The notes under the pieces: generated by a model
Told to the model about the DNA's origin: nothing
Database searches by the model: none
The model's input: only the letters and a program-made list of their open reading frames with translations
Assembly: GCA_016206785.1 (NCBI GenBank)
Contig: JACQQV010000021.1
Location: 63,509-127,508, forward strand
Length of the DNA: 64,000 nt
Source: Candidatus Omnitrophota bacterium
GTDB taxonomy: Bacteria > Omnitrophota > Gorgyraeia > JACQQV01
Direction: 5' to 3'
Position numbers and translations under genes: made by a program
In this document: piece by piece, positions 1 through 34,566 of the stretch
How the letters are laid out: the number at the start of each line of letters is the position of its first letter
Position numbering within the stretch: the first letter of the stretch is position 1

Positions 1-46
1 TCGTCCACACCCTTCAGTTTTTCATTGAGGAGAAATGGCCACTCCC

Positions 47-1844
47 CTAGGAGGGAATCGAAAAGAGTTGCCAGAAGCGCTCCGACGCCCTGATAATAGA
101 GGGGAAGGAGTTCTTCTTGAAATCGATTTTCAATATCGCGGTGACGTTTCATTTTGTCAAGAAAGGAATCAGCAAATGGATATCCCCAGGCATGCTTTCC
201 GAGAGCGTAAACCAGGGCCTTCTGGTTTTGGGGGGAGACGCTCTCTACCTGTCTCAAGACATATCCGAATATTCGATCCTGTTTCAAACGCATCCGAAAG
301 GGTAAACCTTCAAGAGATCCTATGAGTCCCTCGACGAAATAAGGCTGATCTTCTTGACCCAGAGAACTCGCCCAATAATCGATCCTCTTCAAGAAAGCCT
401 TCTCGGAAGAACTCCACGCATTGCCGATCTCCTTAAGATAAAAAGGTTGATACATCCTGTCTAACTGTTTGACCCAAAGGAAAAGTTTTTCGAGATTTTC
501 CAGTGTCTCAGGGCGATAGACCATGTCTTGGCTTAAACCAAGATGGAAGTCGAACCGTTCGGAAGGAGATAAGCGCATATCCAATGCCTTTATTAAGTCT
601 GAAAGTTGGTTAAGATCCTGACCATGGCGATACGCAAGGGCCCACCCCAATTGACGATAGGAATACCCTCGATGCTTCAAGGAAAGGGCGAATTCTTTGA
701 ACCTCAGGAGATTCAGTTCACCCACACATCCCATCCCTAAAAGCAAAATAAGAATACCCAAAGAGACCTTTTGAAAGATTCTTGAGAAGTTTCCTAAACG
801 GACAAGTGCCAGAGCGATCACAGCAAAGAAAAAAGGAAAAAGAGGAACATAATAGCGGAATTCATAGATCCCCAGATGGAATCGACTGAGGCTTGCAGCG
901 GATAGGAAGAAGAGGGGGAACAGAAAAAAGAAATAAATTTTTTTATTCTCCTTTTCAAACTGGCAGAGGATGCCATAAGAAAAAAAGAGGGCGGCGTAAT
1001 AGACGATGTTGAAAAGTGTTATATGCGATAAGACATGGGTTCCTTCTCGATAATTGAAGGAAAAGAGTTGTATCAAACGAAGCGTCGCCAGTTTCAAGAA
1101 ACGAAAAGGAATAATCAGGGGCCGTTCCACAGAAGAATAGACAAAAGCCTCCTTGACACGATCGAAGCCATGAAAACCATAGAGGCCATTATAGAGTAGC
1201 CAGGGACTGAAACCGACGAGAAAAAAAAGGAGGAAAAGATAAAATTCTTTTTTTCGGAAGAGCCTTCGATCCTCGTAGCACCAGAAGAGAATAAAGCATG
1301 CGAGACTGACGACCTGCTGATAACTGAAATAAGTGCCGAATCCTTCTACAAGACCTAACCAGGCTGCACAACGCAGAGAATGTTTTCCATCGTACAGAAT
1401 ACGAAAGAGGAAGAAGAGTCCGAGTGCCGTAAAAAGAAGGGATTCGGCATGAACCCCCATTGCATACATCGCATAGAGGGTAAGATACGGAGGTGAAAAA
1501 AGGTAAAGGAGCGCTATATAAAGAGCTGCTTTCCTTCCAAAAAAGCGCTTCATGAACAGAGCCCATGTGAGGAACGTCCCCAATTGGAAAAAGAGGGCCG
1601 TCAGGCGAAGGACAAAAACACTTTTCCCAAAGACAAGAAACGAGGGGACCGTCAGGACTCCATAGACCAGGCTCCCGCCACTGTAGTGATCTGCAGCATA
1701 ATCAAAAAAGGGGATCTTTAATCCCTGGATGAGTTCTTTGGCAATGGTTCCTCGCTGGAGTTCTTCTGTGAAAGGCTCTGGGAAACAGTAAAGAAGGTGG
1801 AGAATTCGGGTGAGCAGAAAAACAATGGCGAGAAGAAAAATCAT
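47..1844 (-). CDS. GT-C fold membrane glycosyltransferase (ArnT/PMT-like, GT39/GT83-type), ~599 aa; absent from the supplied ORF track
   Basis: Manual minus-strand translation from ATG (revcomp of cat 1842-1844) to TAG (47-49) gives an uninterrupted ORF: MIFLLAIVFLLTRILHLLYCFPEPFTEELQRGTIAKELIQGLKIPFFDYAADHYSGGSLVYGVLTVPSFLVFGKSVFVLRLTALFFQLGTFLTWALFMKRFFGRKAALYIALLYLFSPPYLTLYAMYAMGVHAESLLF... It has at least 10 hydrophobic helices. The N-terminal region resembles ArnT/PMT-family polyprenyl-phosphate-sugar transferases. Its start abuts the stop of the upstream rSAM gene (TAAATG). Confidence 0.7.
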
Positions 1845-2930
1845 TTACGGGGCGGGTCGTCTCAAGCGCTCCTCGGCCAGAGCGAGCGCTTCGTAGTAAG
1901 GAACAGGGGCATCGAAGTTGTCCGCCTCCCCCCATCCATCCCGAGGGCAGCCACGGTAAAGGGGATGAAGACTTTTTCCGTCGGAAGGCTCTTTTTTCGC
2001 ATAAGCATCAAACCAATCAAGAAGGGTGCGCCACCCCTCGTGAACGGTTCCCTTCATTAGATTATACTTAGGGAAAGGAAAACTGACGCAAAAATTCATC
2101 TCCCCATAGGGAGTAATCGCGCAGGAGTTTTGGGCAGCCCGGCAATTCATCCGCCCTTTCCATCGCCTCGGTCCTTCCTCTCCTTTCTCGAGCGGTTTGT
2201 GGTAAACAAGAGGAAGGGGATCTTGAAGAAGTTGAGCCGCTTTGTCAGGATCGAGGCGGTAAACAAGCGGCTCGAGTGAACCGTCCGACTTGGGATGAAT
2301 TACGGTACTGGTTACGGCTCGGATTCCCCACCCCTTGGCCATCGCCTGCATCCTCTCCACTTCCTCAACGTTCACAGTCATGGCAGGAATGATGAGCGTT
2401 ACGGGGATCTTCTTCTTGATCAACCGCTCAATTCCAGAGATACATTTAGAGAAGGAGCCTGGAACAGAGGTCACTCTTTCATAAATCTTCCTTGTCGCTC
2501 CATAAAGTGAGAGGTCGACCTCCAGAGGAAGGAGAGATTGGAGACAATCGGCAATTTCCTCTGTCAGGAAGGTCCCATTTGTTTTCAGGGTAACGGCGAA
2601 TCCCTCCTCTTTAGCGCGAGTCAAAATGTCAAGAAAGTCTCTCCGCGTAAACATCTCTCCGCCTGTCAGGGTTAAAGAAAGGCATCCTTCTGTTCGGAGT
2701 TCTTTAAAAATAGAAATGATTTTCTCCGTCGGCATCTCCTCTTTCTTGGCCCTATGGGTAGGATTATAGCAATGGACGCAGCGGAGATTGCACCCGTAGG
2801 TCAGTTCCATAGTCGCCTCTAAAAGGGTCCGTGAGGATTCTGTTTTGCTAACGACGTTATCCCAAAACTCGATAGGAGAACGCTCCGGGATCGAAGGGGT
2901 TTTAGGATCTAGCGAGGGCATAGGCTTCAT
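1845..2930 (-). CDS. radical SAM/SPASM-domain peptide maturase-like protein (PqqE/MftC-like), 361 aa
   Basis: ORF track. Carries the CxxxCxxC motif LTYGCNLRCVHCYNP and a C-terminal Cys-rich SPASM-like region (CRAAQNSCAITPYGEMNFC). Paralogous to the two rSAM genes at 4040-6087. Confidence 0.8.
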   Translation of the reverse strand: MKPMPSLDPKTPSIPERSPIEFWDNVVSKTESSRTLLEATMELTYGCNLRCVHCYNPTHRAKKEEMPTEKIISIFKELRTEGCLSLTLTGGEMFTRRDFLDILTRAKEEGFAVTLKTNGTFLTEEIADCLQSLLPLEVDLSLYGATRKIYERVTSVPGSFSKCISGIERLIKKKIPVTLIIPAMTVNVEEVERMQAMAKGWGIRAVTSTVIHPKSDGSLEPLVYRLDPDKAAQLLQDPLPLVYHKPLEKGEEGPRRWKGRMNCRAAQNSCAITPYGEMNFCVSFPFPKYNLMKGTVHEGWRTLLDWFDAYAKKEPSDGKSLHPLYRGCPRDGWGEADNFDAPVPYYEALALAEERLRRPAP

Positions 2931-3831
2931 CAGGACGCGCCGCCTCCTTTAGAAAAGAAATAGCGCTTTGTTCTTTCACAAATCCGAATTGATAGCATGG
3001 GACACTCGAAAAAAGCTCTTCACAGAAGGCGAGCGCTTTTTGAATCCGTCCGCCATCCCAGTGTGGGAGGAAAAGTTGTGGGAGAAGAACCTCTGGGAAG
3101 TCTGACAGTGAAAGAGGCTTAAGAGAATTCTGAGAAGCGTGCTGAAGAAAAAAAAGTCCCCTAAGAGGCGCCGATTCTTGAGAGATTCGGAATGTATCCC
3201 CTGGCCACGGAGTTCCATGAAGGAAAAAAGAAGCGCCATCCTTTCGAATAATGACGGTCTCATCGCTCAAGATAGAAACGCCTCCTGTTCCAAGAAACAG
3301 ATGCGCAAGCGTACTCTTTCCCGAGCCAGAAGGACCCACAAAAGCTCTTCCCTCTCCCCCTTCTCGAATCCCAAGTCCATGGACAACGACCCCCTCTCCT
3401 TGACTTAAGAGGTGCACAAGAAGAATCTGCCCTAAGGGCTTCATAAATTCTGTAAAGGGCCAGCGGGGCTTTATCGGCGGAAAGAGTCTATGGAGAGGTC
3501 CAGAAACCCATCCAGGGGCAGCATAGACTTCACCTTCCGAGAAATCTTTCGTAAGGTGAGCAAGGAACTGTCTCTGCTTTGTCTTTGAATGAAAGGTTTC
3601 GATCCAATAATGGCCATCGCTTTCGTAAAGGGCCCAATGGTCTTTCAGTTCAAAAAGGACCCTTTCTTTTAAGAAATCGGGGAAACCGTTCTCGCAATGA
3701 ACCGTCAGATGAACCCTTGGTTTCCCCCGAAGAGGAAAAAGATCGTACCTGAAGGGAAAATCTCGTGGATGAGAATTTTCCCACTCAATGTGAAATCCAA
3801 TTCCTCCGATTTCGAGACTGAAAGAAGGCAT
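2902..3831 (-). CDS. HPr kinase C-domain-like P-loop protein (HprK-related kinase, as found in PqqD/lasso-peptide-kinase contexts), 309 aa
   Basis: The C-terminal half carries VVHGLGIREGGEGRAFVGPSGSGKSTLAH, which resembles the HprK P-loop GxSGxGKS(E/T). There is no N-terminal HPr-kinase regulatory domain. It lies 8 nt downstream of the candidate precursor ORF. Confidence 0.6.
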   Translation of the reverse strand: MPSFSLEIGGIGFHIEWENSHPRDFPFRYDLFPLRGKPRVHLTVHCENGFPDFLKERVLFELKDHWALYESDGHYWIETFHSKTKQRQFLAHLTKDFSEGEVYAAPGWVSGPLHRLFPPIKPRWPFTEFMKPLGQILLVHLLSQGEGVVVHGLGIREGGEGRAFVGPSGSGKSTLAHLFLGTGGVSILSDETVIIRKDGASFFLHGTPWPGDTFRISQESAPLRGLFFLQHASQNSLKPLSLSDFPEVLLPQLFLPHWDGGRIQKALAFCEELFSSVPCYQFGFVKEQSAISFLKEAARPDEAYALARS

Positions 3832-3842
3832 CTAAGGGGTAC

Positions 3843-4034
3843 CTAAGACGAGATCGCGCTGTTTCCCTGCGTTCTACTCCAACTTCGGCATCCATTTGCC
3901 CTACAGGTATTCGTACCGCTGTCAGAAGCAGAGGTCCCATTGGTGGCGCACTGAGAGAGGATCGCCTGTTCATGGTTTAACCGGATTCTAAAAATTTTCG
4001 GTGTTTCATACATCCTTTTCATTGTCTCTTCCAT
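3843..4034 (-). CDS. candidate RiPP precursor peptide, 63 aa (MEETMKRMYETPKIFRIRLNHEQAILSQCATNGTSASDSGTNTCRANGCRSWSRTQGNSAISS)
   Basis: A small ORF wedged between the rSAM gene (ends 4040) and the HprK-like gene (starts 3831). Minus-strand upstream sequence is gataAGAAGGAGGTaaagacaATG, a near-perfect Shine-Dalgarno about 7 nt before the ATG. The peptide has a charged leader-like N-terminus, then a Ser/Thr/Gly/Asn-rich segment with 3 Cys, and ends in Ser-Ser. Confidence 0.45.
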   Translation of the reverse strand: MEETMKRMYETPKIFRIRLNHEQAILSQCATNGTSASDSGTNTCRANGCRSWSRTQGNSAISS

Positions 4035-4039
4035 TGTCT

Positions 4040-5119
4040 TTACCTCCTTCTTATCTTTTCAGCCAAAAGATGCGCTGTCTGACAGAAATGATCGACCGGC
4101 ATCTCACTCTCTCCATTTTCAAAACGTGCCGGAAAAGGCATCTTCCCGCACATCGAATAGACCGTACACTGCCGACAGGGCGAATCGGTTTGATAGGTCA
4201 TTGTACGAATTTTTGGAAAAACTTCTTGGATCGCTTCCTGAAAGGAGTAATGTTTTAATGAAACTCTCGGCTCCCCAATAAAAGTACACGTTCCAAGCTC
4301 TCCCCAAGCCGAAACATGAAACGTATTGGTCCCGCAACCGCAGCGGTAAAGCCGATCGGTCGGCTCATCCGAAATTTCCACACAACGATCCTCGGTATCT
4401 ATGTCCTCGCCATTTATTTCAAGTTCAACAATTTCCTCTGGAGTGAGTCGATAGGCGCAGGGCTTCAAAGAACCATTCAAATCAGGATAGATATCGGTAC
4501 TGAAACGGAACTCCAGCCCGAAACTTTCGACCAGTTCTTTAATCTCATGGAGCCTTCCCCTGTTGAGCGTCATCGCTTTTGTTTTCACCTTGACCGGAAG
4601 TTTCCGTTCCACAAGAAGCCGCAATCCTTCAACAAATCGCTTGAAGGATCCGGGAACCTGAGTCACCGCGTCGAAAACCTCTTCCGTTCCTCCGTGGCAA
4701 CTCGTCTCAATCAAAAAAGGTGGGTCCTTCGCAAGCCGATCCGCAATCTCGGGAGTGATTATGGTGACATTCGTAAAAAGAATGAGAAGAAATCCTTTTT
4801 TCTTTGCATAGTCATAAATATCAAAAAAGTCCTTCCGCATGAAGATTTCGCCACCCGTAAGACAAAGCCAGAGACACCCCGCTTCATGGATTTCATCGAT
4901 CATCCGAAGGACCTCTTCATAAGAAAGCTCTTTTTGAATGTCCTGAGGGTTATTGTGGCAGTCGGTATAGCAGTGGACACAACGGATATTGCATTTATAG
5001 GTAAGTTCGATCTGGCCCCGGATTGGCATCCTTAAGTCATATCCCTTGTCATTGATCGCACTGCTGAAATCATGATACTCTATCTCAGGAATCGTTTCCT
5101 TCATCTTAAGGCCTCTCAC
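4040..5119 (-). CDS. radical SAM/SPASM-domain protein, 359 aa
   Basis: ORF track. Carries IELTYKCNIRCVHCYTD (CxxxCxxC) and SPASM-like C-terminal cysteines (CRQCTVYSMCGKMPF, CGCGTNTFHVSAWGELGTCTF). Confidence 0.8.
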   Translation of the reverse strand: MRGLKMKETIPEIEYHDFSSAINDKGYDLRMPIRGQIELTYKCNIRCVHCYTDCHNNPQDIQKELSYEEVLRMIDEIHEAGCLWLCLTGGEIFMRKDFFDIYDYAKKKGFLLILFTNVTIITPEIADRLAKDPPFLIETSCHGGTEEVFDAVTQVPGSFKRFVEGLRLLVERKLPVKVKTKAMTLNRGRLHEIKELVESFGLEFRFSTDIYPDLNGSLKPCAYRLTPEEIVELEINGEDIDTEDRCVEISDEPTDRLYRCGCGTNTFHVSAWGELGTCTFIGEPRVSLKHYSFQEAIQEVFPKIRTMTYQTDSPCRQCTVYSMCGKMPFPARFENGESEMPVDHFCQTAHLLAEKIRRR

Positions 5120-6087
5120 GGAGTTGAAGAAACCGCTTTGATTGGGATAAATCCGTTCTTCTTGAACATAAACTCCTTTTTAGGAAACCGGCATGGAAAA
5201 TGGGGAAGGTGATTGTAAAATCCATCGTGAAAAGAACCTTTTCGAAGGTCGTAACCCTTCATCCGGTTCCCGGAACAGAGTTGAAGCATCCCATACGCAT
5301 CGATATGAAAATTAAAGAAGCCTGATTCGCATTGGTAGGTTTCTGCCTCTCGTAATTGGATTTCCTTTTCCCGAAGCATCTGCGGATCTTTTTCCTCGAT
5401 CTCTCTCAGTTCTTTTTCAGAAAGTTGATATTCAAAAACATCCTCTGAGCCATCCAGGCGGTTCCGGATCTCCTCGCCAAATTTGAAGGAAACGTTTCCC
5501 AGACCCTTCACAAAAGCCCTGATCTTCAGAATCTCATCCCGATTCACCGTGAGTCCCGTCACCTTCAAAACAAGGTGGAGGTTTCTTTCTAAAAGAAGGT
5601 TGATCGCCCGTAATACTTTCTGAAAAGAGCCTTCTCCCTGCGTCACCTTTTCAAAAATCTCTTTCGATGTGGCATGAAGACTGATCTCGACGGAAAAAGG
5701 AGGATTTTCTTTCAGAAAATCGGAAACCTCCTCGGTAATCAAGGACCCATTGGTAAAAAGGGTGATTAAAAATCCCTTGTCCTTGGCAACCTTATAGATC
5801 TGGAAAAAATCTTTTCGCATAAAGATTTCGCCACCCGTCAAGGTAAGCCAAAGACATCCTCCTTTATGAAGTTCACCTAAGATCCGTAGGACTTCCTCAG
5901 TTTGAAGTTCTTTGGGAAAATATTGAGGATGATTATAGACATCTGTGTAGCAATGGATACAGTGAAGATTGCAGCGGCAAGTCAATTCCCATTGTCCGAT
6001 AAGAGGGAGTCTTCCCCTCTCACTCTTTGCGACGAGCCGCTTGAAAAACTCACGATCCGTAACAGAAGAAAGAAAATCGCATGCCAC
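5116..6087 (-). CDS. radical SAM/SPASM-domain protein, 323 aa
   Basis: ORF track. Carries WELTCRCNLHCIHCYTD (CxxxCxxC) and C-terminal Cys residues (CESGFFNFHIDAYGMLQLCSGNRMKGYD). It overlaps the downstream paralogue by 4 nt, which suggests translational coupling. Confidence 0.8.
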   Translation of the reverse strand: MACDFLSSVTDREFFKRLVAKSERGRLPLIGQWELTCRCNLHCIHCYTDVYNHPQYFPKELQTEEVLRILGELHKGGCLWLTLTGGEIFMRKDFFQIYKVAKDKGFLITLFTNGSLITEEVSDFLKENPPFSVEISLHATSKEIFEKVTQGEGSFQKVLRAINLLLERNLHLVLKVTGLTVNRDEILKIRAFVKGLGNVSFKFGEEIRNRLDGSEDVFEYQLSEKELREIEEKDPQMLREKEIQLREAETYQCESGFFNFHIDAYGMLQLCSGNRMKGYDLRKGSFHDGFYNHLPHFPCRFPKKEFMFKKNGFIPIKAVSSTP

Positions 6088-6092
6088 CCGCT

Positions 6093-6395
6093 CTATTCTC
6101 CCTTTTCCGCACCCGCAAAATGTTTCGGCTCTATGAGTCCTTCCCTCCTCAGTTTTTTAAGGAAGGAAAGCACATCATGCTTCACCCTTTTGGGTTCTGC
6201 TTCGAAGTTTTGTTCAATGTGTGTGATAAGTTCCTGAACGGTTCTACTCCCGTCCAACGCCTCCCAGATCGCTGCGCCAACAGGAGTGAGTTTGAGGAGG
6301 TCTCCCTCATCCTGATCCACGAGGATCGCTTCTTCCTCTACCCGTCGCCAAGGAATTCTTCCATTCTTCTCGAAGATATCCGTAAGTCTAAACAT
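6093..6395 (-). CDS. PqqD-family (RRE-like) small protein, 100 aa
   Basis: MFRLTDIFEKNGRIPWRRVEEEAILVDQDEGDLLKLTPVGAAIWEALDGSRTVQELITHIEQNFEAEP... matches the PqqD/RRE pattern: P..R..GE..L......L.N..A..IW.L.DG..T..E. Confidence 0.65.
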   Translation of the reverse strand: MFRLTDIFEKNGRIPWRRVEEEAILVDQDEGDLLKLTPVGAAIWEALDGSRTVQELITHIEQNFEAEPKRVKHDVLSFLKKLRREGLIEPKHFAGAEKGE

Positions 6396-7947
6396 GAAAA
6401 TGGATGAGGCGTAAAAAATAATTTTTTGTCTCTAGCCAAAGAAGAAAAAGGATTTTCCTTGCTTCTCTTCCCATTTTGTAGGTGAGGCCCTCACGAAAAT
6501 AGATCCAAAAAAGACGGAGATGTAGAAGTAAGGGATGGAAACCGAGACGCGCCGCTTCAAGTAGGTTCTCTTTTGCCAGACGAGACTCTTTTTTCTTGAG
6601 AAAGGCGGAACCGATCCAGAATTTCAGAATCGCCTCCGGCCCTTTGAGTTCGAGCGACTTCCGGAAAGCACTCAGGGCTCTATCCCACTCTCCCTGCTCG
6701 AAAAAAAGAGACCCTATCCCATAATAAGCCGTGGCCAGTCTGGGATTCTTCGAAAGGGCCTCTTCATAATAAAAGAGCGCCTGGGAAAAATCTTTCTCCG
6801 CCCTAAATGTATGGCCCAAACCGCAGAGTGCATGGGCGTGATTCGGGTCGAGGGTAAGAATCTTTTTGTACTCTTCCTCTGCCTTTTTCCATTGACCAAG
6901 ATTCTGATAGGCCGGTCCAAAATTGTTGTAGGCGGTGGCGTAGGTGGGATCCGCGGAAACCGCTTCTCGATAAAGTCGGGAGGCCTCTGTTTTCTCTCCC
7001 CTTTTTAGAAAGAGCAAAGAAAGATTGTAAAAGCTTGCAGCATCTTTTGGATTGACCCCAAGGGCCTTTCGATACTCCAAAATCGTCTCCTCCACCTTCC
7101 CCTCCTCTTCAAAGGCTTGTGCAGATCTTTTGTGATGATAAGCATCGTTTGGAGCGGAGGGGTCTCGGATAAGTTGTGCAAGGGCGTCTCCAAAATATTT
7201 ATAAGGAAGTGGAGTAAATCCCCCCTCGACAGAATAGGCAATCGTGACACAATCACTCCGGATACCCTTTGATCGCAAGGCGTCGACAACATTCTCTGGG
7301 AAGAGCCACGGTTTCTTACAGCGAGGGTCTTCATCCCCATGTTCTAAAAACCCTGAGATGAGGAAATCGGTATCAATATCAAGAAGAACCTCTTCTTCAA
7401 TAGTGGGAAGGTTCTGAAGAGTGCAGACAATCAATGGAAAGCCATAAAGTGTTGCCTGAGCCTTTGTTCCCTCAATACGGATATCGGTAAACGCTTCTGG
7501 ATGGTTTCTCCGAAATTCTCGAAAGATATAACCCATCTCTTTTTCCCAAGAAACCCCTCGGGGGGCTTCCGGGGTCGCCCAATAAAAAGCCCGAAGAAGG
7601 CCCTGCCGGAGAGCAGGGCAGATATAATTTCCGATATGGACGAAGGACTCTGTCCCTCGATCTGTGAAGTTCCAAAAGATCTTTTGTTGGGTAAGCGCTT
7701 CTAATTCTTGAGGAGAGGAGATACTGAGGAGATCGGAGAAGGACCTCTCAGGAATCCAATTGAAGTCGATGTGGGCATCGATATGGAGGAGGATGCGGTT
7801 TGAAAAGTTCCCTCTCTGCCAGGCCCAGAGGGCCTCATCATGATCTTCCATCAGGGTGACGGCAGGGAGAGGATCAATTCCTACCCGATCGTCTTGGGGA
7901 GTTGAAGACCTTCTTAAAGAAGGTTGGGTCGCTAACGCGTCGGTCAC
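6388..7947 (-). CDS. fusion protein: N-terminal UPF0489-like domain (putative metal-dependent hydrolase fold) plus C-terminal TPR repeats, 519 aa
   Basis: The N-terminus carries MEDHDEALWAW...ILLHIDAHIDFNW, which resembles the EDHHEVL...HFDSHPD signature I associate with UPF0489. The C-terminus carries at least 6 TPR-like repeats (AYNNFGPAYQNLGQWKKAEEEYKKILTLDPNHAHALCGLGHTF...). Confidence 0.6.
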   Translation of the reverse strand: MTDALATQPSLRRSSTPQDDRVGIDPLPAVTLMEDHDEALWAWQRGNFSNRILLHIDAHIDFNWIPERSFSDLLSISSPQELEALTQQKIFWNFTDRGTESFVHIGNYICPALRQGLLRAFYWATPEAPRGVSWEKEMGYIFREFRRNHPEAFTDIRIEGTKAQATLYGFPLIVCTLQNLPTIEEEVLLDIDTDFLISGFLEHGDEDPRCKKPWLFPENVVDALRSKGIRSDCVTIAYSVEGGFTPLPYKYFGDALAQLIRDPSAPNDAYHHKRSAQAFEEEGKVEETILEYRKALGVNPKDAASFYNLSLLFLKRGEKTEASRLYREAVSADPTYATAYNNFGPAYQNLGQWKKAEEEYKKILTLDPNHAHALCGLGHTFRAEKDFSQALFYYEEALSKNPRLATAYYGIGSLFFEQGEWDRALSAFRKSLELKGPEAILKFWIGSAFLKKKESRLAKENLLEAARLGFHPLLLHLRLFWIYFREGLTYKMGREARKILFLLWLETKNYFLRLIHFHV

Positions 7948-7950
7948 CGA

Positions 7951-8235
7951 TTATTTCTCTCGGATGATTCCGGTTTCCTTAAATTGCGCCAGAAGCCCCA
8001 AAAGATCTTTCTCTGCAACGTGAGGATCTATCTCAAATTCGGAGATAACCGTCTCGCAGACCTCTCGGACCGATTTCTTTCCATCAATCAGTTCCCAAAT
8101 CCTCGCCCCTACCTCATTCAACGTGAAGATGGCAGGTTCTTCCCCTAAGGTTTGACGAATAGGGACAAGGACCGTTTCTTCCGCGATTTTCCTTGATACA
8201 ATATTGGGAGATTTTTCGTAACTTGTTTCTAGCAC
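7951..8235 (-). CDS. PqqD-family (RRE-like) small protein, 94 aa
   Basis: ...PNIVSRKIAEETVLVPIRQTLGEEPAIFTLNEVGARIWELIDGKKSVREVCETV... fits the PqqD pattern. This is the second stand-alone copy in the locus. Confidence 0.65.
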   Translation of the reverse strand: MLETSYEKSPNIVSRKIAEETVLVPIRQTLGEEPAIFTLNEVGARIWELIDGKKSVREVCETVISEFEIDPHVAEKDLLGLLAQFKETGIIREK

Positions 8236-8278: not shown

Positions 8279-9085
8279 TCAAGGTTTTTGTGGGGTGAGA
8301 ATCGCATTGCAGTTGCTGAAATCCATCTCCACAACTTTAAAGTTCGAGTTCTCTATCTCACTCAAAAGCTCCGAGGGTTTGCTGAAAATGTGCCAATAGT
8401 GACCCATAAAGCAGACGTCTCCTTCTTCTAGCTCCCGATTGCCGCCAGAAAGGATTGCAAGCCACTTTTTGAGCCGGAACTTCCAACCCTTTTCCCGGAA
8501 ATCATCTCTACCACAAAACTCTAGATAAAAAAATCCGTCGTCTTTGAGATGAGATCGCATCTTTCTTAAAAAGGCGATCCGCCTTGTGCGGGTAGGAATT
8601 TCGCTATACATCGACTGGCTCAGAAAAAGCGCGTCATGCTTTCTTGCCGGTGATAAACTATCAAGTACATTTCCCACTTCAAAGTGGCAATTTTTTAAGG
8701 AAAGGGCACGGACATGTTCTTTTGCTCTTTCTACAAGATCCTGGGAGGTCTCGATTCCCGTAACCTCAAATCCTAATTTCGCCAAGGCGAGGGATTCCCG
8801 ACCACCGCCAGACATCAGTACAAGACACTCCTTTTTTCCTTTTAAATATTTTGTCACAAATTGAGATTCTTCTGGGCTCAGTCCCCTCGTTCGTACCGCT
8901 TCCCCCGCCAAAGCCTCTGAAAAGTCCCTCCGATTATAAAACTGTTCAACAAATTTTTCGAGATCTTTAGGTTTTGAGAGAACTAGTACAAGTGACCCAA
9001 AGGCTGAAGAAATCTTTTCCTGAAAACGATTCAAGAGAAGGTCGATGCGCACCAAAACGGAAACAAGGAAAAACCGAGCACTCAT
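8279..9085 (-). CDS. class I SAM-dependent methyltransferase, 268 aa
   Basis: Carries the motif I-like segment CLVLMSGGGRESLALAKLGFEVTGIETSQDLVERAKEH, and DALFL/post-I motifs. Confidence 0.65.
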   Translation of the reverse strand: MSARFFLVSVLVRIDLLLNRFQEKISSAFGSLVLVLSKPKDLEKFVEQFYNRRDFSEALAGEAVRTRGLSPEESQFVTKYLKGKKECLVLMSGGGRESLALAKLGFEVTGIETSQDLVERAKEHVRALSLKNCHFEVGNVLDSLSPARKHDALFLSQSMYSEIPTRTRRIAFLRKMRSHLKDDGFFYLEFCGRDDFREKGWKFRLKKWLAILSGGNRELEEGDVCFMGHYWHIFSKPSELLSEIENSNFKVVEMDFSNCNAILTPQKP

Positions 9086-10161
9086 CTATTTTTTAAGAGG
9101 GGTTCAATGACTTCTACCAAGGCTTGGGCAGCGAGTCGATGACCACGTTCATTGAGATGAAACGGGTCTCCTTTTCTATAAAGTTTTTCTCTCAGGTGAC
9201 GTTGTAAACTTTCCCGGATATCGATCAGCGGAACCTGCAAGTTGTGCGAAATGCGTCGGAAACGATAAAAGGAGGGACGGATTTTTAAGATCCCCAGCTC
9301 GTGAAGATCCGGAAAATAGGCAAACAACACTTGAGCGTGAGAGCGACGTGCTAACTGAACCAGCTCGCGCAACCGTTGTTCCGCCTCCTGCCAGTAGCGC
9401 GCCTCCCGAGATCCTGTTGCGTTGTAAGAGACCTGAAGCGCCCAAAAAGAAATAACGGAACCGATGCGCTGATCCAAAAATTTCAATAAGAAACTGTGGG
9501 GCAGCAAGGAAGAGTAGAAATTGTGAAAAGGCGACGATGGAGAAGAAACCTCGGGTTCCGGTAAAAGACAAAGCCTCCCTTGATCATCGACGTTAAAGAG
9601 GGATGGGTAAATGTCGTTCCTATAGAAATTAACAATAACAATATCCGGTCTCAAAAGAGGAAGGAGTTCCTTAAAGATACGAACTTCCTGTTCAGTATTA
9701 TAATTATCAGAGGCGGCATTGAATACAATAGGAGGATTACGTGGAAATTTTTCCTTGAGTAACACTTCAAGTCTTTTACAAAAAGTTGTCTCAAAAGGAA
9801 CCCCGTAGCCAAATGTGATAGAGTCTCCCAAACAGAGGACGACATCGTCTTTTTCTTTCACCTTCGGCCATTCCGGTCCCCGCCAACCCTGTGTATTGAT
9901 TTCATACCATGCCCCTTGCCAGCGAATGCGTGCTCCTCGTCGATACCGGTGGACGACCTCAGGATCTGCGACAAAAAGACCGGGAATGTCGGACATGAAA
10001 AGATAAGGGTCTGGCGCATTTTCCGGCAAGGCCTTGATCACCTCCGCTTCCGGCATACGACGAGAGACAAAAACAAACCGATAAAATCGGAGGATCCCTT
10101 CTGCCGCCAAGCAAGCGAGGCACAAGCCGACTACCACAAGAAAAAATCGTGTACGAGTCAC
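9082..10161 (-). CDS. SGNH/GDSL-family hydrolase with N-terminal signal/TM segment, 359 aa
   Basis: Carries VVLCLGDSITFGYGV (the GDSx block). The N-terminus MTRTRFFLVVVGLCLACLAAEG is hydrophobic. The start codon, by my reading of the sequence, is GTG (cac 10159-10161). Confidence 0.65.
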   Translation of the reverse strand: MTRTRFFLVVVGLCLACLAAEGILRFYRFVFVSRRMPEAEVIKALPENAPDPYLFMSDIPGLFVADPEVVHRYRRGARIRWQGAWYEINTQGWRGPEWPKVKEKDDVVLCLGDSITFGYGVPFETTFCKRLEVLLKEKFPRNPPIVFNAASDNYNTEQEVRIFKELLPLLRPDIVIVNFYRNDIYPSLFNVDDQGRLCLLPEPEVSSPSSPFHNFYSSLLPHSFLLKFLDQRIGSVISFWALQVSYNATGSREARYWQEAEQRLRELVQLARRSHAQVLFAYFPDLHELGILKIRPSFYRFRRISHNLQVPLIDIRESLQRHLREKLYRKGDPFHLNERGHRLAAQALVEVIEPLLKNR

Positions 10162-10230: not shown

Positions 10231-12126
10231 ATGGTAGAAACAGTGAAGCCTATTGGTGTTTTAACCGATCTTCTTCAAATAACGGACATTCCAGAGATTA
10301 TCGATCTTTTGATCGCGTCCAAGAAGGCCCGTTTCACCATTGAAGGCTTCAGCATGTACCCCACCCTCCGAGTAGGAGACATCGTTGAGGTGGACCCCCT
10401 AACAAAAGAAACGCTTGAAGTAGGAGACCTTGTTGTTTTTCAAAAAGAAAAGAAACTCATCTGTCACCGCCTGGTAGAGATTTTTGAGAAAAACGGGGAG
10501 GCGTGGATTAAGACAAAGGGGGATACGGTCGAGGAGAGTGACACCCCACTCGCCCTTCGTCAGATCCTGGGAAAGGTGACGCGCATTGAGCGAGACGGAA
10601 TTCCTCGGATCCCCTCGGCCGTTCCTCAAAAACTTTCCTTTGCAGAAATCATCTTCTTCTCTGCCTATCGGCAATTCGGGGGAAAACTCAGACCGAAACT
10701 GAGAACAGTTTTCTTACGCAGTCTCTCTTCTCTTTTATTCCGCCGCGTGTATCGCTTCCTGTTCCGTCCCGATGTGATTTATTCTGTCAGAATTCCAACT
10801 GCTTCGACTCCTGATCCGAAATTCTGGCGGTCTGTTCAAAGTCTCCCGGGGGCGAATGAGTCTTTACAGGACGCTTCGGTCTATCGCTTTTTTGCAAAGG
10901 TAGGCAAAAATGTCGTTGGAAGTCTTGAGGTGCGGACTCTCGATAAAACCGCTTCGCAATGGAGGGTTTCCCATCTTTTCGTGAGGGCAAGGTACCGGGG
11001 GTGCCACGTTGCAACAACACTCCTGAGAAGATCGTTTCAGAGGCTCAGACGACAAGGAGCCTCCTTATTAAGCATAGAAGTGGGTCCTCAAAATCGTCCC
11101 GCACTTTCCCTTCTAAAACAACTAGGCTTCGACGACGCCGTACAAAAAGATCCTTTCGTCCTTCAGAAAGACCTTTCGTTCCCGCTCAAGCGCTTAAGAG
11201 GCGAAAAAGAACTGCAACCGTTTCTTTATCACGCTCTTCCCTCTGATACGCTCAAAGAAAGCTTCCTCAGGAGCGTCGCAAAACACCTCTTCTTCGAACA
11301 GGCCCTTCTTGAGATAGACACCGTTTTCAAAAATGCGGGAATACCTTTTATCGTACAGAAGGGAATGGCACTTGCGTATACCCTTTACCCCGACCCTGCG
11401 ACGCGACCGATGGTGGATATCGATCTGTATCTACGTAAAAACGATGTCCCCTCGGCCATATCCCTTTTAGAAGGACTCGGCTATGAACTGGGAGCAGCCA
11501 AGTTTCGAGAAGAACTGATCACCTTCGGGGGAGAGCTCAGCTTCCACAAAAAAAATGCCCCTTTTGTTGAACTCCACTGGTGCCTTGAACAGTATGAGCG
11601 ATTGAAAGGAATTGTAAAAGTTGACGAGGAAGACCTGTGGAAAAGGACTGTCTCCTATACGATTTCAGGAAGAAAATTTCTGACCCTCTGTTCAGAGCAT
11701 CAACTGCTCGCGCTTTCCATCCACCTCGGTCTCATTCATCGGTTTCGTGGCTCTCTCAAGTGGTTTCTGGACATCGATCAGTTCGTCATGAAATTCGGGG
11801 AGGACCTGGATTGGGAGGAACTTTTTCAAACCGCACGGCGATGGGGAATTGAACGGGTGTTTTGCCAAGTGCTCCTTGCAACCCAGGAGCTCTTCAACAC
11901 CCCCCTTCCTCCTCTTCCGATTCAAAATTCTTCATTCTTCCTGAGACATCCCATCTTTCAATGGTTCCTCCCAGATCGTCCCTCCGACCGCCTCCGGGTC
12001 CTCTTCCGGATCTTCTTCCCGAGCCGGGAATGGCTCATCTACCGATATCGCCTCAAACGGCGCGACCTCATCCCCTTCCACCGCTTCCTCCATCCTCTCT
12101 TTGTTCTTATCGGCAAGACAAGGTAG
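10231..12126 (+). CDS. tri-domain protein: N-terminal S24/S26-type peptidase-like domain, central GNAT acetyltransferase, C-terminal nucleotidyltransferase-like (NTP_transf_5-type) domain, 631 aa
   Basis: The N-terminus carries EGFSMYPTLRVGDIVEVD...DLVVFQKEKKLICHRLVEIF...KTKGDTV (compare signal-peptidase/LexA G-S-M-x-P-T-L...GD motifs). The central region ...SLEVRTL...VRARYRGCHVATTLLRRSFQRLRRQGASLLSIEVGPQN is GNAT-like. I assign the C-terminal region to uncharacterised nucleotidyltransferases. The upstream RBS is GAGAAGGatg. Confidence 0.6.
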   Translation: MVETVKPIGVLTDLLQITDIPEIIDLLIASKKARFTIEGFSMYPTLRVGDIVEVDPLTKETLEVGDLVVFQKEKKLICHRLVEIFEKNGEAWIKTKGDTVEESDTPLALRQILGKVTRIERDGIPRIPSAVPQKLSFAEIIFFSAYRQFGGKLRPKLRTVFLRSLSSLLFRRVYRFLFRPDVIYSVRIPTASTPDPKFWRSVQSLPGANESLQDASVYRFFAKVGKNVVGSLEVRTLDKTASQWRVSHLFVRARYRGCHVATTLLRRSFQRLRRQGASLLSIEVGPQNRPALSLLKQLGFDDAVQKDPFVLQKDLSFPLKRLRGEKELQPFLYHALPSDTLKESFLRSVAKHLFFEQALLEIDTVFKNAGIPFIVQKGMALAYTLYPDPATRPMVDIDLYLRKNDVPSAISLLEGLGYELGAAKFREELITFGGELSFHKKNAPFVELHWCLEQYERLKGIVKVDEEDLWKRTVSYTISGRKFLTLCSEHQLLALSIHLGLIHRFRGSLKWFLDIDQFVMKFGEDLDWEELFQTARRWGIERVFCQVLLATQELFNTPLPPLPIQNSSFFLRHPIFQWFLPDRPSDRLRVLFRIFFPSREWLIYRYRLKRRDLIPFHRFLHPLFVLIGKTR

Positions 12127-13207: not shown

Positions 13208-14023
13208 TCACCTCGCTTCCTGAACAACTTCCTGGATGGTCTGCTCGTCGATGGAAGTGGCTTTTTTGCCCAATCCTGAGAGAAGGGACAGATTGCATAA
13301 AGTATTGATCTTCCTCGGAATGCCTCCGCTATGTTCGTAGATGAGCTGGATCGCATCGTCCGTAAAGATCGGGTCCTCTCGACCGGCGGTCGTAAGCCGG
13401 GTCTGGATATAATGGCGCGTCTGCTCTTCGTCCAAACCCTCCAGATGGCATTTGATCTCGATCCGCTGCGAAAAGGGCTTGAATCGGTTCACATGTTCCC
13501 TCAACTCAGGTTGGCCGAACAAAAGGAGGGTCAGTAAAAACTGGTCGTTTGACTGAAAGTTGAGGAGGAGCCGCAATCCCTCCAGCACAGAAGGATCTTC
13601 GATCACATGGGCCTCATCCACAATAATGACCGTCTCGCTCCCATCCTTCAAATTATCGTAAAGGATATCCTTCAGCTCATTGAGGAGAAATGTCGCCACA
13701 AGATCCGATTTCTTCGTCGGGAGGTTCTTTCCGCCCCCTAATGCTTGAACGATTGCAGCCAGAAGTTCAATGTAATCCAGTTTTGGATTCCGGATGAAGG
13801 CGATCTTATATTTCTCTCCAACCAGCCCTTTCAACAGGGCTTCCCCCAATAACGTCTTTCCACATCCAAAGATCCCTGTCAACATGGCTGCCCCCACCTT
13901 CTCTTGGACGGCATACAAGAGCCTTGAAAGGGCTTCGTCATGTTGGGGGGAGGCGTAGAAGAATCGGGGATCGGGAGTATTTTGAAAGGGCATGAGATTG
14001 AATTTCCAATATTCTTTATACAT
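13208..14023 (-). CDS. ExeA/MshM-like AAA ATPase (putative secretion ATPase of PEP-CTERM loci), 271 aa
   Basis: Walker A is LTGIFGCGKT and Walker B is VIIVDEAH. The gene lies next to the PEP-CTERM/exosortase locus. Confidence 0.7.
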   Translation of the reverse strand: MYKEYWKFNLMPFQNTPDPRFFYASPQHDEALSRLLYAVQEKVGAAMLTGIFGCGKTLLGEALLKGLVGEKYKIAFIRNPKLDYIELLAAIVQALGGGKNLPTKKSDLVATFLLNELKDILYDNLKDGSETVIIVDEAHVIEDPSVLEGLRLLLNFQSNDQFLLTLLLFGQPELREHVNRFKPFSQRIEIKCHLEGLDEEQTRHYIQTRLTTAGREDPIFTDDAIQLIYEHSGGIPRKINTLCNLSLLSGLGKKATSIDEQTIQEVVQEAR

Positions 14024-22189: not shown

Positions 22190-23527
22190 ATGAAACTCAT
22201 TCAGCACCTTGAACAGCGTCAGATCCTTGCCCCTTCTTTAAGGCAAGCACTCCATATTCTTCAACTCTCCACCCTGGAACTCCAGACCCTCATGGAAAAA
22301 GAGCTCCAGGAAAACCCCTGTTTGGAAGAGGAGCGGCCCCGCGGGTCGCAGGAAAAGACACTCCCCTTTGAAACGGTTGTTCCCCCCACATCCCATTTTT
22401 CAGCCTCTGAAGAGGATGAGGAGATATGGAACTACCGGGAGAGTTTGGTGACCAAGCCGATAACGCTGGGTGAACATCTGCTCCATCAGCTCCGTCTCTT
22501 TTGTACTTCAGAACAGGATTGCCGGATTGGGGAAGTCCTCATCGGCTCCCTCGATGAGAATGGATACCTCCGTGAGTCGGTCGAAGAGATTGCGGCCCTG
22601 CATCATGTCTCCCCCACCGACGTCGAACGGCTTCTTTCTCTCATTCAGGGATTTGATCCTCTTGGCGTCGGTGCACGCGATCTTGCAGAATGCCTTCTTC
22701 TTCAACTCGACTCCCACTCTCCGCTCGAGTCCACAATCATTCGTGATCACCTCTCGGACCTACAGGCCAAACGAGTGGACCTCATCCAAAAGAAACTCAA
22801 GGTCTCCGAAGAAAAACTCAAGGAAGCGGTCCGCCGCATCATGGCCCTGGAACCGAAGCCGGGACGTTCCTTTAGCCATCCCAAAACCAGCTACGTGACT
22901 CCTGACATCACTGTAAAGAAGGGGAAGGAAAACACCTTTGAGATTCTCCTCAATGATGAGGAACTCTCCCCTCTACGACTCAACCCCACCTATGAAAGGC
23001 TTTTAAAGGGAAACAACCTCTCCGAATCAGATAAAACTTTCTTAAGAGAAAAAATGCAGTCGGCCCAGTTTCTCATGCGGGCCATTCGCCAAAGGAAAGA
23101 GACACTCCAGCAACTCGCAGAAGCGCTTGTCGCGTTTCAGAAAGAGTTTTTTGAGCAGGGCCCCAGCGCTCTCAGGCCCATGACGATGGATGAGATGGCG
23201 AGCTGCATTCAGAAGCACCGTTCGACGGTAAGCCGGGCGGTCAAAAATAAATTCATCCAGACTCCCTATGGTCTTTTCGAGATCAAATTCTTCTTCACGG
23301 GCGATATGGGCAGTTTGGAGAACGAGGGAGTTTCTTCGAGAGCGGTTAAGGAAAGAATTAAAGAATTGATACAAAATGAAAATCCCGCCGCTCCCTTAAG
23401 CGACGACGAGATCCTTCAAAAACTTCAGGAAGAGGGGATTTCGATTAAACGTCGGACGGTTTCCAAATATCGGCAAACCCTTGGGTTTTCTTCCTCTTTC
23501 CTCAGGAAAAATAGACTTTCCCGTTAA
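22190..23527 (+). CDS. rpoN: RNA polymerase sigma-54 factor RpoN, 445 aa
   Basis: The N-terminal region I is Gln/Leu-rich (LRQALHILQLSTLELQ). The C-terminal RpoN box is KRRTVSKYRQ, and a HTH precedes it. Confidence 0.9.
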   Translation: MKLIQHLEQRQILAPSLRQALHILQLSTLELQTLMEKELQENPCLEEERPRGSQEKTLPFETVVPPTSHFSASEEDEEIWNYRESLVTKPITLGEHLLHQLRLFCTSEQDCRIGEVLIGSLDENGYLRESVEEIAALHHVSPTDVERLLSLIQGFDPLGVGARDLAECLLLQLDSHSPLESTIIRDHLSDLQAKRVDLIQKKLKVSEEKLKEAVRRIMALEPKPGRSFSHPKTSYVTPDITVKKGKENTFEILLNDEELSPLRLNPTYERLLKGNNLSESDKTFLREKMQSAQFLMRAIRQRKETLQQLAEALVAFQKEFFEQGPSALRPMTMDEMASCIQKHRSTVSRAVKNKFIQTPYGLFEIKFFFTGDMGSLENEGVSSRAVKERIKELIQNENPAAPLSDDEILQKLQEEGISIKRRTVSKYRQTLGFSSSFLRKNRLSR

Positions 23528-24549
23528 AAAATCACCATCGTGAGCTTGGCGAGTTGCGCCAAAAGATCCAAGTTTTGGGCCTTGAGGCGATTTTCCCGCT
23601 TGTGACTATTGATGCTTAAGATCCCTAATACCTTCTCCTGGCGGGAAAGAGGCATGACAATTGAAGAATCAATCTCGCTTCTTTTCAAGCGGTGCTTCAG
23701 GGCTGGATCGAGGGGCATTTCCGGATCAATGAGAAGCGGCCGATTCCGCTGGGCCACCCATCCTGCAACCCCTTCCCCAACTTTTACCTCCGCTTTCTGA
23801 ATCACTTCCTCGTTCAATCCGAGGGCGGCTCGAATACGAAGCGTCTGGGAAGGTGAATCCAAAACCATCACAGAACCAGAATCGGCTTTGGTCGCCCGCA
23901 GCGCGAGATCAAGGAGGGTTGAAAAAAAGTTGTCCAATTCATCGGGCTTCGTCGCAAGATCCTTTTTCCAGGAAGAAGTGAACTCAGAGAGGATCTGTTC
24001 GTGTCCTCCCTTGAGAGCGGTCGGTTGGACAAGATAATTACAGACTTCCGACAAAAGCTCAAGCATCGCCTTCATGCCGACGAAGGAAAAAAGTTTTGCT
24101 TCCTGATCAAGGCCCTCCAAGGAAAGAAGATCCCATCCCTGCTCCTTGGCCAGTCCCTCCAATTCCTTTTGGGATCTCCTTGAACCGAGCAAAAGAGGAC
24201 CTACGACAAGATAGGCCATGACCCGTGAAGATTCACTAAAAATGGGAATTACTGCGTAGGTAAAACCGAGCGACTCGGTCCCTTCCGCCGCCGCGTGTGT
24301 GGCTTCGCTTTTGCGGATGAGGCTCTGAATGACTTCGGAAGGCGTCCTGAATTTCAGTCGGGAAGGATTTTTGGCAGCGGCGATCAACTCCCAGATTTTC
24401 GGCGTGTGTTGAGGGAGGGTCAACAGTTTCGCCCTGGGGTCAACGGTGTAGACATCTACGCCCAGAACTTCTGCGAAACGGCTCAGGATGAATGCCCATT
24501 GATCGACATTGATAAGATTCGGTAATGACTCGCCGCCTGGTTCAACCAT
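23524..24549 (-). CDS. GAF-domain protein, 341 aa
   Basis: ORF track. A GAF-like C-terminal region (MVLDSPSQTLRIRAALGLNEEV...SIVMPLSRQEKVLGILSINS). It converges with rpoN. Confidence 0.55.
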   Translation of the reverse strand: MVEPGGESLPNLINVDQWAFILSRFAEVLGVDVYTVDPRAKLLTLPQHTPKIWELIAAAKNPSRLKFRTPSEVIQSLIRKSEATHAAAEGTESLGFTYAVIPIFSESSRVMAYLVVGPLLLGSRRSQKELEGLAKEQGWDLLSLEGLDQEAKLFSFVGMKAMLELLSEVCNYLVQPTALKGGHEQILSEFTSSWKKDLATKPDELDNFFSTLLDLALRATKADSGSVMVLDSPSQTLRIRAALGLNEEVIQKAEVKVGEGVAGWVAQRNRPLLIDPEMPLDPALKHRLKRSEIDSSIVMPLSRQEKVLGILSINSHKRENRLKAQNLDLLAQLAKLTMVIF

Positions 24550-24584
24550 AGATGTCCCCCCATCTCTTTGAGAGTTAACCTGGA

Positions 24585-30189: not shown

Positions 30190-30210
30190 GGTGTGTGTTG
30201 CAAAAAGACC

Positions 30211-30537
30211 TTACGAGGTCTTCTTTCTAAACAACCTTCGAAGCCTTGAGCGACCGAGAGCACTACTGAGAAGTCCGGTGCCGAACAAAAGAAGGGAGCC
30301 AGGTTCTGGAGTATGGGCAAGGGTCGATGTTTCATTCCCATCACTCCCCCCATTTTCTGAAGAGACAAGCGTCACGACCCCGCTACTACTTCCGTAATAC
30401 TCTCCACCTGAACTCCCTGTTCCACTCAGTGCTCCTAAAAGACTGCTGAACGCCCCTCCCCCGCCTCCCTCCTCACAACCTGAAAGGAGGATAAGGAGAA
30501 GGGGTAAAAGGAGGAGAATAGATTTATCTCTGAACAA
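30211..30537 (-). CDS. small PEP-CTERM protein with lipoprotein-type signal, 108 aa
   Basis: LLSGC lipobox-like segment, Gly/Ser-rich body, and C-terminus TPEPGSLLLFGTGLLSSALGRSRLRR. Confidence 0.75.
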   Translation of the reverse strand: MFRDKSILLLLPLLLILLSGCEEGGGGGAFSSLLGALSGTGSSGGEYYGSSSGVVTLVSSENGGSDGNETSTLAHTPEPGSLLLFGTGLLSSALGRSRLRRLFRKKTS

Positions 30538-30579
30538 TCAAAATCACTTCCTTAATACAATACCCAGATTCGCCGAGAC

Positions 30580-32012: not shown

Positions 32013-32023
32013 TCTCACCCCCA

Positions 32024-32824: not shown

Positions 32825-32894
32825 GAAACTTCTTTCTTTGTTCAGAGTTGAACCAAACAGGGCATAAAAATAGCGTGACATACTGTTATAAGAA

Positions 32895-32909
32895 GCATGT
32901 TTCGTGCCA
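32895..32909 (-). promoter_or_regulatory. sigma-54 (-24/-12) promoter on minus strand: TGGCACGAAACATGC
   Basis: Plus-strand gcatgtttcgtgcca at 32895-32909 is minus-strand TGGCACG-AAAC-ATGC, matching the consensus TGGCACG-N4-TTGC(W) with a single change (TTGC to ATGC). It lies about 70 nt upstream of the proposed MSHKS start. rpoN and a sigma-54-dependent regulator are encoded nearby. Confidence 0.6.
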
Positions 32910-33005
32910 ACTCCCTTTCTTCTCAAAAAAATTTCTCTGTTTTCATAATTTTTAACTCTTTTATCTACAATAAGTTACGAGATTATTTTTGGCCGTTTTT
33001 AGGAC

Positions 33006-34545: not shown

Positions 34546-34566
34546 AGGGCTGTCTTCCCGAAAAAT

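Follow-up and report, generated by a model that had tools for sequence, protein, structure and literature searches.

The window, i.e., the whole stretch of 64,000 nucleotides that was analysed, carries a peptide-maturation cassette near its left end. The cassette ends with a gene for a GT-C (PMT_2-like) glycosyltransferase, which is cut by the window edge. The features are given below.

1..1844, minus strand: GT-C (PMT_2-like) glycosyltransferase gene, codons 1-614 of 689; the frame is open to the window edge, and the full length is known from identity with contig L001
3..713, minus strand: C-terminal alpha-solenoid of the GT-C protein, aa 378-614 in the window and on to about 672 (modelled; predicted periplasmic)
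714..1844, minus strand: transmembrane GT-C core, aa 1-377 (modelled, 11 TM helices, N-terminus inside)
1671..1766, minus strand: first external loop, aa 27-58, EELQRGTIAKEL...FFDYAADHYSGGS, with putative catalytic dyad E27/E28 (invariant or near-invariant columns)
1842..1847, minus strand: TAA-ATG stop-start junction from the radical SAM (rSAM) gene to the GT-C gene, no spacer, same frame
1845..2930, minus strand: third radical SAM enzyme, adjoining GT-C on its upstream side (profile matches)
2902..3831, minus strand: ScmC-like/HPr-kinase-related P-loop protein (ScmC, HprK_rel_A/B, and PF27840, all weak)
3843..4034, minus strand: 63-aa precursor peptide, NCBI hypothetical protein HY590_03375 (homologues at the equivalent position)
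4040..5119, minus strand: radical SAM enzyme (profile matches)
5116..6087, minus strand: radical SAM enzyme (profile matches)
6093..6395, minus strand: PqqD-family (RRE-type) peptide chaperone (profile matches)
6388..7947, minus strand: UPF0489/peptide-arginase-like N-domain fused to TPR repeats (profile matches)
7951..8235, minus strand: second PqqD-family chaperone (profile matches)
8279..9085, minus strand: SAM-dependent methyltransferase (profile matches)
9082..10161, minus strand: GDSL/SGNH hydrolase, with which the minus-strand operon begins (profile matches)
10231..12126, plus strand: tri-domain fusion of S24/S26-type (signal-peptidase-I-like) peptidase, GNAT, and NTP_transf_5, divergent (Pfam; TIGR02228)

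The GT-C gene was absent from the ORF list because its frame runs off the left edge of the window, and the list omits such ORFs. The original prediction had placed a long unlisted minus-strand ORF of 599 codons at 47-1844. The ORF is real, uninterrupted, and starts at ATG 1844, but this extent is wrong. The span 47-1844 is 1798 nt, i.e., no multiple of 3, and the TAG at 49-47 that had been taken as the stop lies off the frame, in which CTA at 50-48 is read. When the minus strand was called again, the frame was open from 1844, had no in-frame stop at 47, and ran off the window. It is stop-free to window position 3, which gives 614 codons within the window. The chance of such a run is about (61/64)^614, i.e., about 1e-13, at about 50% GC.

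The missing end was recovered from L001, a 14.9-kb Logan contig retrieved through an exact match to the adjacent rSAM protein. L001 matched window 1-7969 without a single mismatch. On this contig the gene encodes a complete protein of 689 aa (P0001), and its 3' end, i.e., 75 codons and the stop, reaches 226 nt past the left window edge. On a 131.9-kb contig at NCBI, the same protein (100% identity) is recorded as 'MAG: glycosyltransferase family 39 protein [Candidatus Omnitrophica bacterium]'. This is a real gene, and a generic annotation for it already exists.

The start codon, ATG 1844-1842 on the minus strand, comes right after the stop codon TAA 1847-1845 of the rSAM gene 1845-2930. The two codons meet as ...CCG TAA ATG ATT..., with a spacer of zero and a shared frame. 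Thirteen orthologues (46-78% identity) share the N-terminus and align on the same ATG, which agrees with the TAAATG coupling to the last rSAM gene proposed earlier. Past the GT-C gene on L001, a convergent AAA_22 ATPase gene was found, followed by hflX-hrcA-grpE-dnaK; therefore, the operon ends with GT-C.

The ScmC-like protein conserves the LLHA..G motif and the Walker A motif GPSGSGKST. The fusion protein at 10231-12126 matched TIGR02228 with 59.1 bits against a cut-off of 51.85. The border of the cluster is marked by miaA. By domain searches, neither an exporter nor a donor-synthase gene was found in the window cassette, and the GT2 genes of the window are of the EPS type.

The 63-aa ORF at 3843-4034 is, judged from its sequence family, a genuine precursor. 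It has the leader motif YETPKI (YxxPxI), a Cys/Ser/Thr-rich core, and Ser as its last residue. About 50 distinct homologous sequences were collected, and in many loci they occupy the same place as in the window; their consensus is Y..P.I.RV.LN.EQAVLS.CS...C...C(R/K)...DS...S. Common to the family are three conserved Cys, a core rich in Ser/Thr, and an RRE-type leader with the motif YxxPx(I/L); every complete homologue ends in Ser. The leader is of the RRE type and not a secretion signal. When precursors of cassettes with and without GT-C were compared, no clean discriminating feature was found. A weak trend to R-x-S tails was seen in one GT-C-less clade only.

The GT-C protein matched Pfam PMT_2 (PF13231) at aa 68-218 (window 1191-1643) with 39.3 bits, above the gathering cut-off of 26.1, whereas PF02366 (PMT), also named in the original prediction, gave no match. 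Many distant members of the family score under the PMT_2 gathering threshold. PF02366 and MIR were searched at E<=0.01, and none of the NCBIfam models, ArnT included, matched. All strong structural matches were GT-C enzymes without exception; a PDB sequence search with the family profile returned nothing (E > 0.8). Its core crosses the membrane several times, with helices arranged in the conserved GT-C manner, and the protein almost certainly has the GT-C fold. Because PF02366 and the NCBIfam models were not matched, both the earlier description 'ArnT/PMT-type' and the NCBI name 'family 39' are valid at superfamily level only. The GT-C part of that description stood, with the PMT_2 match, the structure matches, and the acidic loop, but membership in ArnT or PMT did not.

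The first loop has a strongly conserved family motif, EELYRGTIAKEL..GLK.PF..Y.AD.YSGGSLV. In alignment A2, E27 was invariant and E28 was at least 90% conserved, and the E27E28 motif was intact in independently recovered homologues. The acidic loop motif together with H132, E134, and R330/Y331 was invariant or nearly so across 37 sequences of 22-77% identity. In hhalign, the protein showed remote profile similarity to E. coli ArnT (E 1.6e-4, 50% probability). E27-E28 were placed on D31-E32 of ArnT, TEELQRGTIAKEL was aligned against PDETRYAEISREM, and D48 fell on the E of YFEKP. Acidic residues of the kind used in catalysis by GT-C enzymes are thus present in the first loop, and its location outside the membrane was predicted from the positive-inside rule. 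Family-wide, the density of K+R was 0.28 for loops proposed to be cytoplasmic and 0.08 for external ones. An 11-helix topology with the N-terminus in and the C-terminus out fits this rule, and it would put the C-terminal domain, like the acidic loop, in the periplasm.

The C-terminal domain was modelled as all-helical with high pLDDT. It is built of repeated helical hairpins with the signature phi-x-x-G-phi-G/S, and its structure matches were weak and HEAT/ARM-like only. A TPR profile did not match. A single-sequence search of 1.84 billion representative proteins returned just 8 homologues of this domain, with no other architecture and no hint to function among them. The solenoid is a clade-restricted and fast-evolving module, as expected for acceptor recognition. 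By background knowledge, alpha-solenoid modules bind peptides and proteins in TMTC and OGT-type enzymes.

The neighbourhoods of related GT-C genes were then compared, and the conservation of GT-C genes at homologous rSAM loci, which had been suggested as a check, was examined from two sides. Module genes of the cassette were present in 14 of the 16 GT-C-anchored loci with usable flanks. The module consists of a Ser-ending precursor, a ScmC/HPr-kinase-like protein, PqqD, rSAM/SPASM, an S24-like peptidase, a methyltransferase, and, above all, NTP_transf_5. It was found beside GT-C in close relatives (L003/L007 and L006) and also beside distant GT-Cs of 25-40% identity (the P0016 locus, L008, L009, L010, L014-L018, L094, and L095). 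The organisms of the paired loci were annotated as Nitrospirota, Methylomirabilota, and 'Bacillati bacterium ANGP1'; soil and groundwater metagenomes were also represented. The NTP_transf_5 gene was directly upstream of GT-C in L015-L018, L024, L028, L045, L047, and L076. Nearly the entire gene set of the window was reproduced in L018 (Nitrospirales), and in L003/L007 the end of the precursor ORF coincides with the GT-C start codon. Tandem arrays of 2-6 GT-C paralogues were common (L006, L007, L010, L014, and L096).

From the other side, an ScmC-anchored metagenome scan gave 74 loci. Their canonical order was PqqD-UPF0489/TPR-PqqD-rSAM-rSAM-peptide-ScmC-rSAM-MTase-S24(+GNAT)-NTP_transf_5-GT-C. 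GT-C was the terminal gene after NTP_transf_5 in 7 of about 21 assessable cassettes. In L024, for example, the NTP_transf_5 gene ends at 14733 and the GT-C ORF starts at 14735, with unrelated genes flanking both sides. In the other cassettes (about 14 of 21, assessable by 1.5 kb or more of additional sequence), neither a GT-C gene nor a substitute glycosyltransferase was found. GNAT and GT-C occurred together in 5 loci of the ScmC-anchored set, GNAT alone in 1 (contig-truncated), GT-C alone in 0, and neither in 21. However, no GNAT domain was detected in L016-L018 and L010, so this co-occurrence was not taken as a rule.

The relation is asymmetric, i.e., members of the GT-C clade nearly always accompany the cassette, and only about one third of the cassettes have GT-C. 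GT-C is therefore an accessory tailoring gene, dispensable to the peptide pathway in view of the two thirds of cassettes that lack it. Many of the related loci share ancestry, and the locus counts overstate the number of independent events. Because the counts are phylogenetically non-independent, no formal probability was assigned to the pairing. Co-location with the cassette is conserved across unrelated lineages. A link to the peptide operon and co-transcription by chance had been put forward as equal options; chance was rejected, since distant relatives in several phyla show the same pairing. The GT-C gene is very probably linked to the cassette in function.

A pathway can be proposed from these genes. 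The PqqD proteins would bind the 63-aa precursor via its YxxPxI leader, and the three rSAM enzymes would cross-link its three Cys. The ScmC/HPr-kinase-like protein may then phosphorylate the invariant C-terminal Ser, and the NTP_transf_5 domain may glycosylate this phosphate, by analogy with paeninodin and pseudomycoidin. Both activities are proposed because every complete precursor ends in Ser. The S24/S26-like domain would cleave the leader. After export, GT-C would add a further sugar at the periplasmic face, with the alpha-solenoid as acceptor-binding module. Its target could be the Ser/Thr-rich core (O-glycosylation) or the C-terminal phospho-glycan (extension).

Confidence differs between the parts of this proposal. 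From sequence, an active glycosyltransferase that uses a polyprenyl-phosphate sugar donor and is accessory to the cassette has an even chance of being correct. For the exported peptide or its glycan as the acceptor, the chance is even at best and perhaps slightly lower. As a more tentative extension, the GT-C arrays, with up to six paralogues, might glycosylate an exported, cross-linked, Ser-phospho-glycosylated peptide and build or diversify an oligosaccharide on it; this would be the first RiPP family to be tailored at the periplasmic face by GT-C enzymes with lipid-linked donors. Several neighbouring genes in related loci lend context in favour of the proposal. Small GT2 genes beside GT-C arrays (L008 and L096) were closest to the polyprenyl-P-monosaccharide synthases PgfS, ArnC, AglJ, and Dol-P-hexose transferase, with scores below curated cut-offs. 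An ArnB/PseC-like sugar aminotransferase was present in L095, a CE4 polysaccharide deacetylase inside the cassette of L045, and an ABC exporter gene directly upstream of GT-C in L094.

Two of these genes, those of L094 and L045, also speak for another reading, in which GT-C belongs with the cassette and glycosylates an envelope lipid, an exopolysaccharide, or a secreted/PEP-CTERM-type protein instead of the peptide. GT-C could be a means of producer self-protection or of envelope remodelling that accompanies peptide production. The ABC protein of L094 scored equally with MsbA/PglK-type lipid flippases and with peptide exporters, and the L045 gene is the polysaccharide deacetylase. A homologue with intact motif was found in L012 (Planctomycetia) in a polysaccharide-export locus without peptide genes, which contains GT4s, a Wza-like exporter, a sugar epimerase, and a sugar C-methyltransferase. 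In addition, the lack of an exporter in the window cassette and the many cassettes that manage without GT-C would agree with an envelope acceptor. An exosortase/PEP-CTERM EPS locus is also present in the window at about 27-64 kb, about 15 kb from the cassette, but miaA, miaB, an RNase J-like gene, and rpoN stand between the two. Most GT-C genes, moreover, immediately adjoin and often abut NTP_transf_5, precursor, or rSAM genes, with no other polysaccharide genes. The domain on the acceptor side is an alpha-solenoid, by background knowledge a module of the peptide- or protein-binding kind. An envelope acceptor is considered less likely than the exported peptide, but it is a serious rival to it.

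It is improbable that GT-C is non-catalytic, i.e., a membrane scaffold, a receptor, or an export/immunity factor that binds the modified peptide via its solenoid, because the loop residues are near-invariant over the 37 sequences in the pattern of an active site; donor-synthase-like GT2 genes also stand beside several arrays. The last reading, a generic ArnT-like modifier of lipid A or the envelope that is co-transcribed with the rSAM operon by chance, could refer to the inclusion of ArnT in the PMT_2 family, to the hhalign result, and to the merely generic GT39 name at NCBI, but it is highly improbable given the recurrent pairing with the cassette, the absence of arn genes near the GT-C gene, the unmatched NCBIfam ArnT model, and a different predicted periplasmic domain, the alpha-solenoid, known in only 8 representatives.

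The gene itself is an ordinary member of a known superfamily, and its conserved accessory role in a peptide-maturation cassette appears to be undescribed. In the literature covered, with many subscription papers outside coverage, no description of the cassette or of GT-C in a RiPP pathway was found, nor any paper on the SynChlorMet system; a peptide-arginase paper was found, without this cassette. To our knowledge, all known RiPP glycosylation is performed by soluble, nucleotide-sugar-dependent cytoplasmic enzymes. The recurring terminal GT-C points to a second, extracytoplasmic tailoring stage with polyprenyl-phosphate sugars, and the pairing suggests an undescribed route for sugar decoration of peptides, or of partners travelling with them, outside the cytoplasm. 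If this is true, RiPP biosynthesis would be linked with the systems that glycosylate proteins and the envelope, and would form a hybrid with the bacterial protein-glycosylation machinery. If the acceptor is instead an envelope component, producers would remodel their surface alongside peptide production. The cassette is widespread and apparently unstudied, in Omnitrophota, Nitrospirota, Methylomirabilota, and soil metagenomes. The Ser-ending precursors give a concrete prediction that can be checked by mass spectrometry.

In comparison with known GT-C enzymes, membership in ArnT (GT83) was rejected, since no curated model was matched and the genes around it code for rSAM, ScmC, and PqqD proteins instead of forming an arn operon. 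ArnT has 13 TM helices, whereas 11 were predicted here, and its periplasmic domain is replaced by the all-helical solenoid. The context of ArnT is arnBCADEF, unlike the peptide-maturation cassette around this GT-C. Membership in the canonical PMT family (GT39) was also rejected, with no PF02366 or MIR match and EE in place of DE in the loop; PMT1/2/4 carry the DE loop and a MIR domain, and the present protein has a bacterial RiPP-like context. ALG12/ALG9/ALG3 and STT3/AglB/PglB showed 7-14% identity, i.e., no relationship at sequence level. TMTC1-4 have a PMT_2-like core plus TPR. In architecture, by background knowledge, the protein is most like such enzymes with a PMT_2 core and helical repeats.

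The cassette was also compared with known peptide systems. The phosphorylated and phospho-glycosylated lasso peptides paeninodin and pseudomycoidin are a published precedent for the steps proposed for the ScmC/HprK-like and NTP_transf_5 partner genes. The likeness lies in the ScmC/HprK-like protein, NTP_transf_5, PqqD-type RREs, and Ser-ending precursors, and lasso-type genes were found nearby in L008. However, those systems have no membrane GT-C, and the window cassette has three rSAM enzymes instead of a lasso cyclase or B2 protease. The SynChlorMet (Scm) and HprK-related kinase A/B systems are composed of the same kinds of parts, i.e., ScmC-like, ScmD/PqqD-like, and at least two rSAM/SPASM (ScmE/F) proteins. 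The scores against the SynChlorMet and HprK-related models were far under the curated cut-offs (for example ScmC 23 vs 125, ScmD 44.8 vs 100, ScmE about 80 vs 400, and ScmF 87 vs 400); therefore, the window cassette is a sister system and not a SynChlorMet member. Glycocins are glycosylated by SunS-type GT2 S/O-glycosyltransferases, which are GT-A enzymes that are soluble, work in the cytoplasm, and depend on nucleotide sugars. Glycosylation as RiPP tailoring would be common to both, whereas the GT-C protein is membrane-bound, is expected to use lipid-linked donors, and would act outside the cytoplasm.

The precursor peptide of the window belongs to an unnamed and large family with about 50 distinct sequences, and its homologues were found in the database contigs L006, L015-L018, and L020-L080. 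The window copy is annotated only as a hypothetical protein at NCBI. The leader of these peptides carries the motif YxxPx(I/L), three Cys residues and a C(R/K) are conserved, and all complete members end with a C-terminal Ser. A second precursor subtype, i.e., YEKPxL...CC[KR]xT...CST...RTS[AT]TS, was found in L003/L007, L016, and L017. The genes of the window in and around the cassette were located as follows.

3843-4034, minus strand: precursor peptide
6388-7947, minus strand: UPF0489/peptide-arginase-like (PF12640) N-terminal domain fused to TPR repeats
10231-12126, plus strand: signal-peptidase-I-like S24/S26, GNAT, and NTP_transf_5 domains in one fusion protein
13208-14023: AAA_22/TniB-like ATPase

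The UPF0489/TPR fusion is kept in the cassette. Because the precursors conserve Arg/Lys C-terminal to the last Cys, an Arg-to-ornithine conversion by such a peptide-arginase-like protein is conceivable.

In the tri-domain fusion, the S24/S26 peptidase domain scored above the cut-off of NCBIfam TIGR02228 (59.1 vs 51.85 bits). No obvious N-terminal membrane anchor was found ahead of this domain, which suggests a cytoplasmic leader peptidase with the signal-peptidase fold.

In Omnitrophota-type loci, one or two copies of AAA_22/TniB-like ATPase genes were placed immediately past the membrane glycosyltransferase (GT-C) gene in convergent orientation. These ATPase genes were detected at L004 2954-4575, at L006 7919-9591, and at 8155-8985 of L001, the contig extending past the left edge of the window, where the copy lies just beyond this edge. 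The ATPase gene at 13208-14023 is a further one, on the far side of miaA.

The window also carries a large PEP-CTERM/exosortase exopolysaccharide (EPS) locus, which is preceded by its regulators.

22190-27291: rpoN and a sigma-54-dependent two-component system
27281-63997, minus strand: PEP-CTERM/exosortase EPS locus
29161-32024, minus strand: three PEP-CTERM proteins
32024-32926, minus strand: Bac_transf priming transferase
33119-33742, minus strand: EpsI-like DUF3485 protein
33739-34617, minus strand: exosortase EpsH
37615-42384, minus strand: 1589-aa protein with PcRGLX-like (rhamnogalacturonan-lyase-like) domains and a GH123 catalytic domain

The 1589-aa protein is encoded within the EPS locus, which also has numerous GT2/GT4 genes and codes for Wzy_C, deacetylases, a pyruvyl transferase, and a methyltransferase.

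In the search with the C-terminal solenoid of GT-C, the only match of different architecture was P0061, a database protein of 1216 aa from outside the window. A 26-residue stretch was matched eight times in this protein (E 1e-5), and it may be a repeat protein made of the same hairpin unit as the GT-C solenoid.

Two GT-C-anchored loci, L012 and L096, had no module gene. The clearest exception to the GT-C/module synteny is L012 (3590-16613, Planctomycetia), in which a GT-C homologue with an intact catalytic-loop motif is placed within a polysaccharide locus with two GT4s, an HD-domain protein, a Wza-like Poly_export protein, an amine oxidase, a sugar C-methyltransferase, and an epimerase; no peptide-maturation genes were found in this locus. 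The 9.5-kb contig L096 showed only GT-C paralogues (1322-7734) and, following them, two GT2 genes, which are small and similar to polyprenyl-P-sugar synthases.

Such tandem arrays, comprising three to six full-length GT-C paralogues of the same clade, were also found in L007 (2750-8771), L014, and L010 (3506-16167). In L010, a methyltransferase, a 49-aa ORF, NTP_transf_5, and an S24-like gene are followed by six consecutive paralogues. In L008 (1-1254 and 5794-14058), lasso-peptide-type Asn_synthase, Transglut_core3, and PqqD genes were found together with NTP_transf_5, a 2OG-Fe oxygenase, and several GT-C paralogues. Because the lasso-type genes share this contig, L008 connects the GT-C clade with a second type of peptide pathway.
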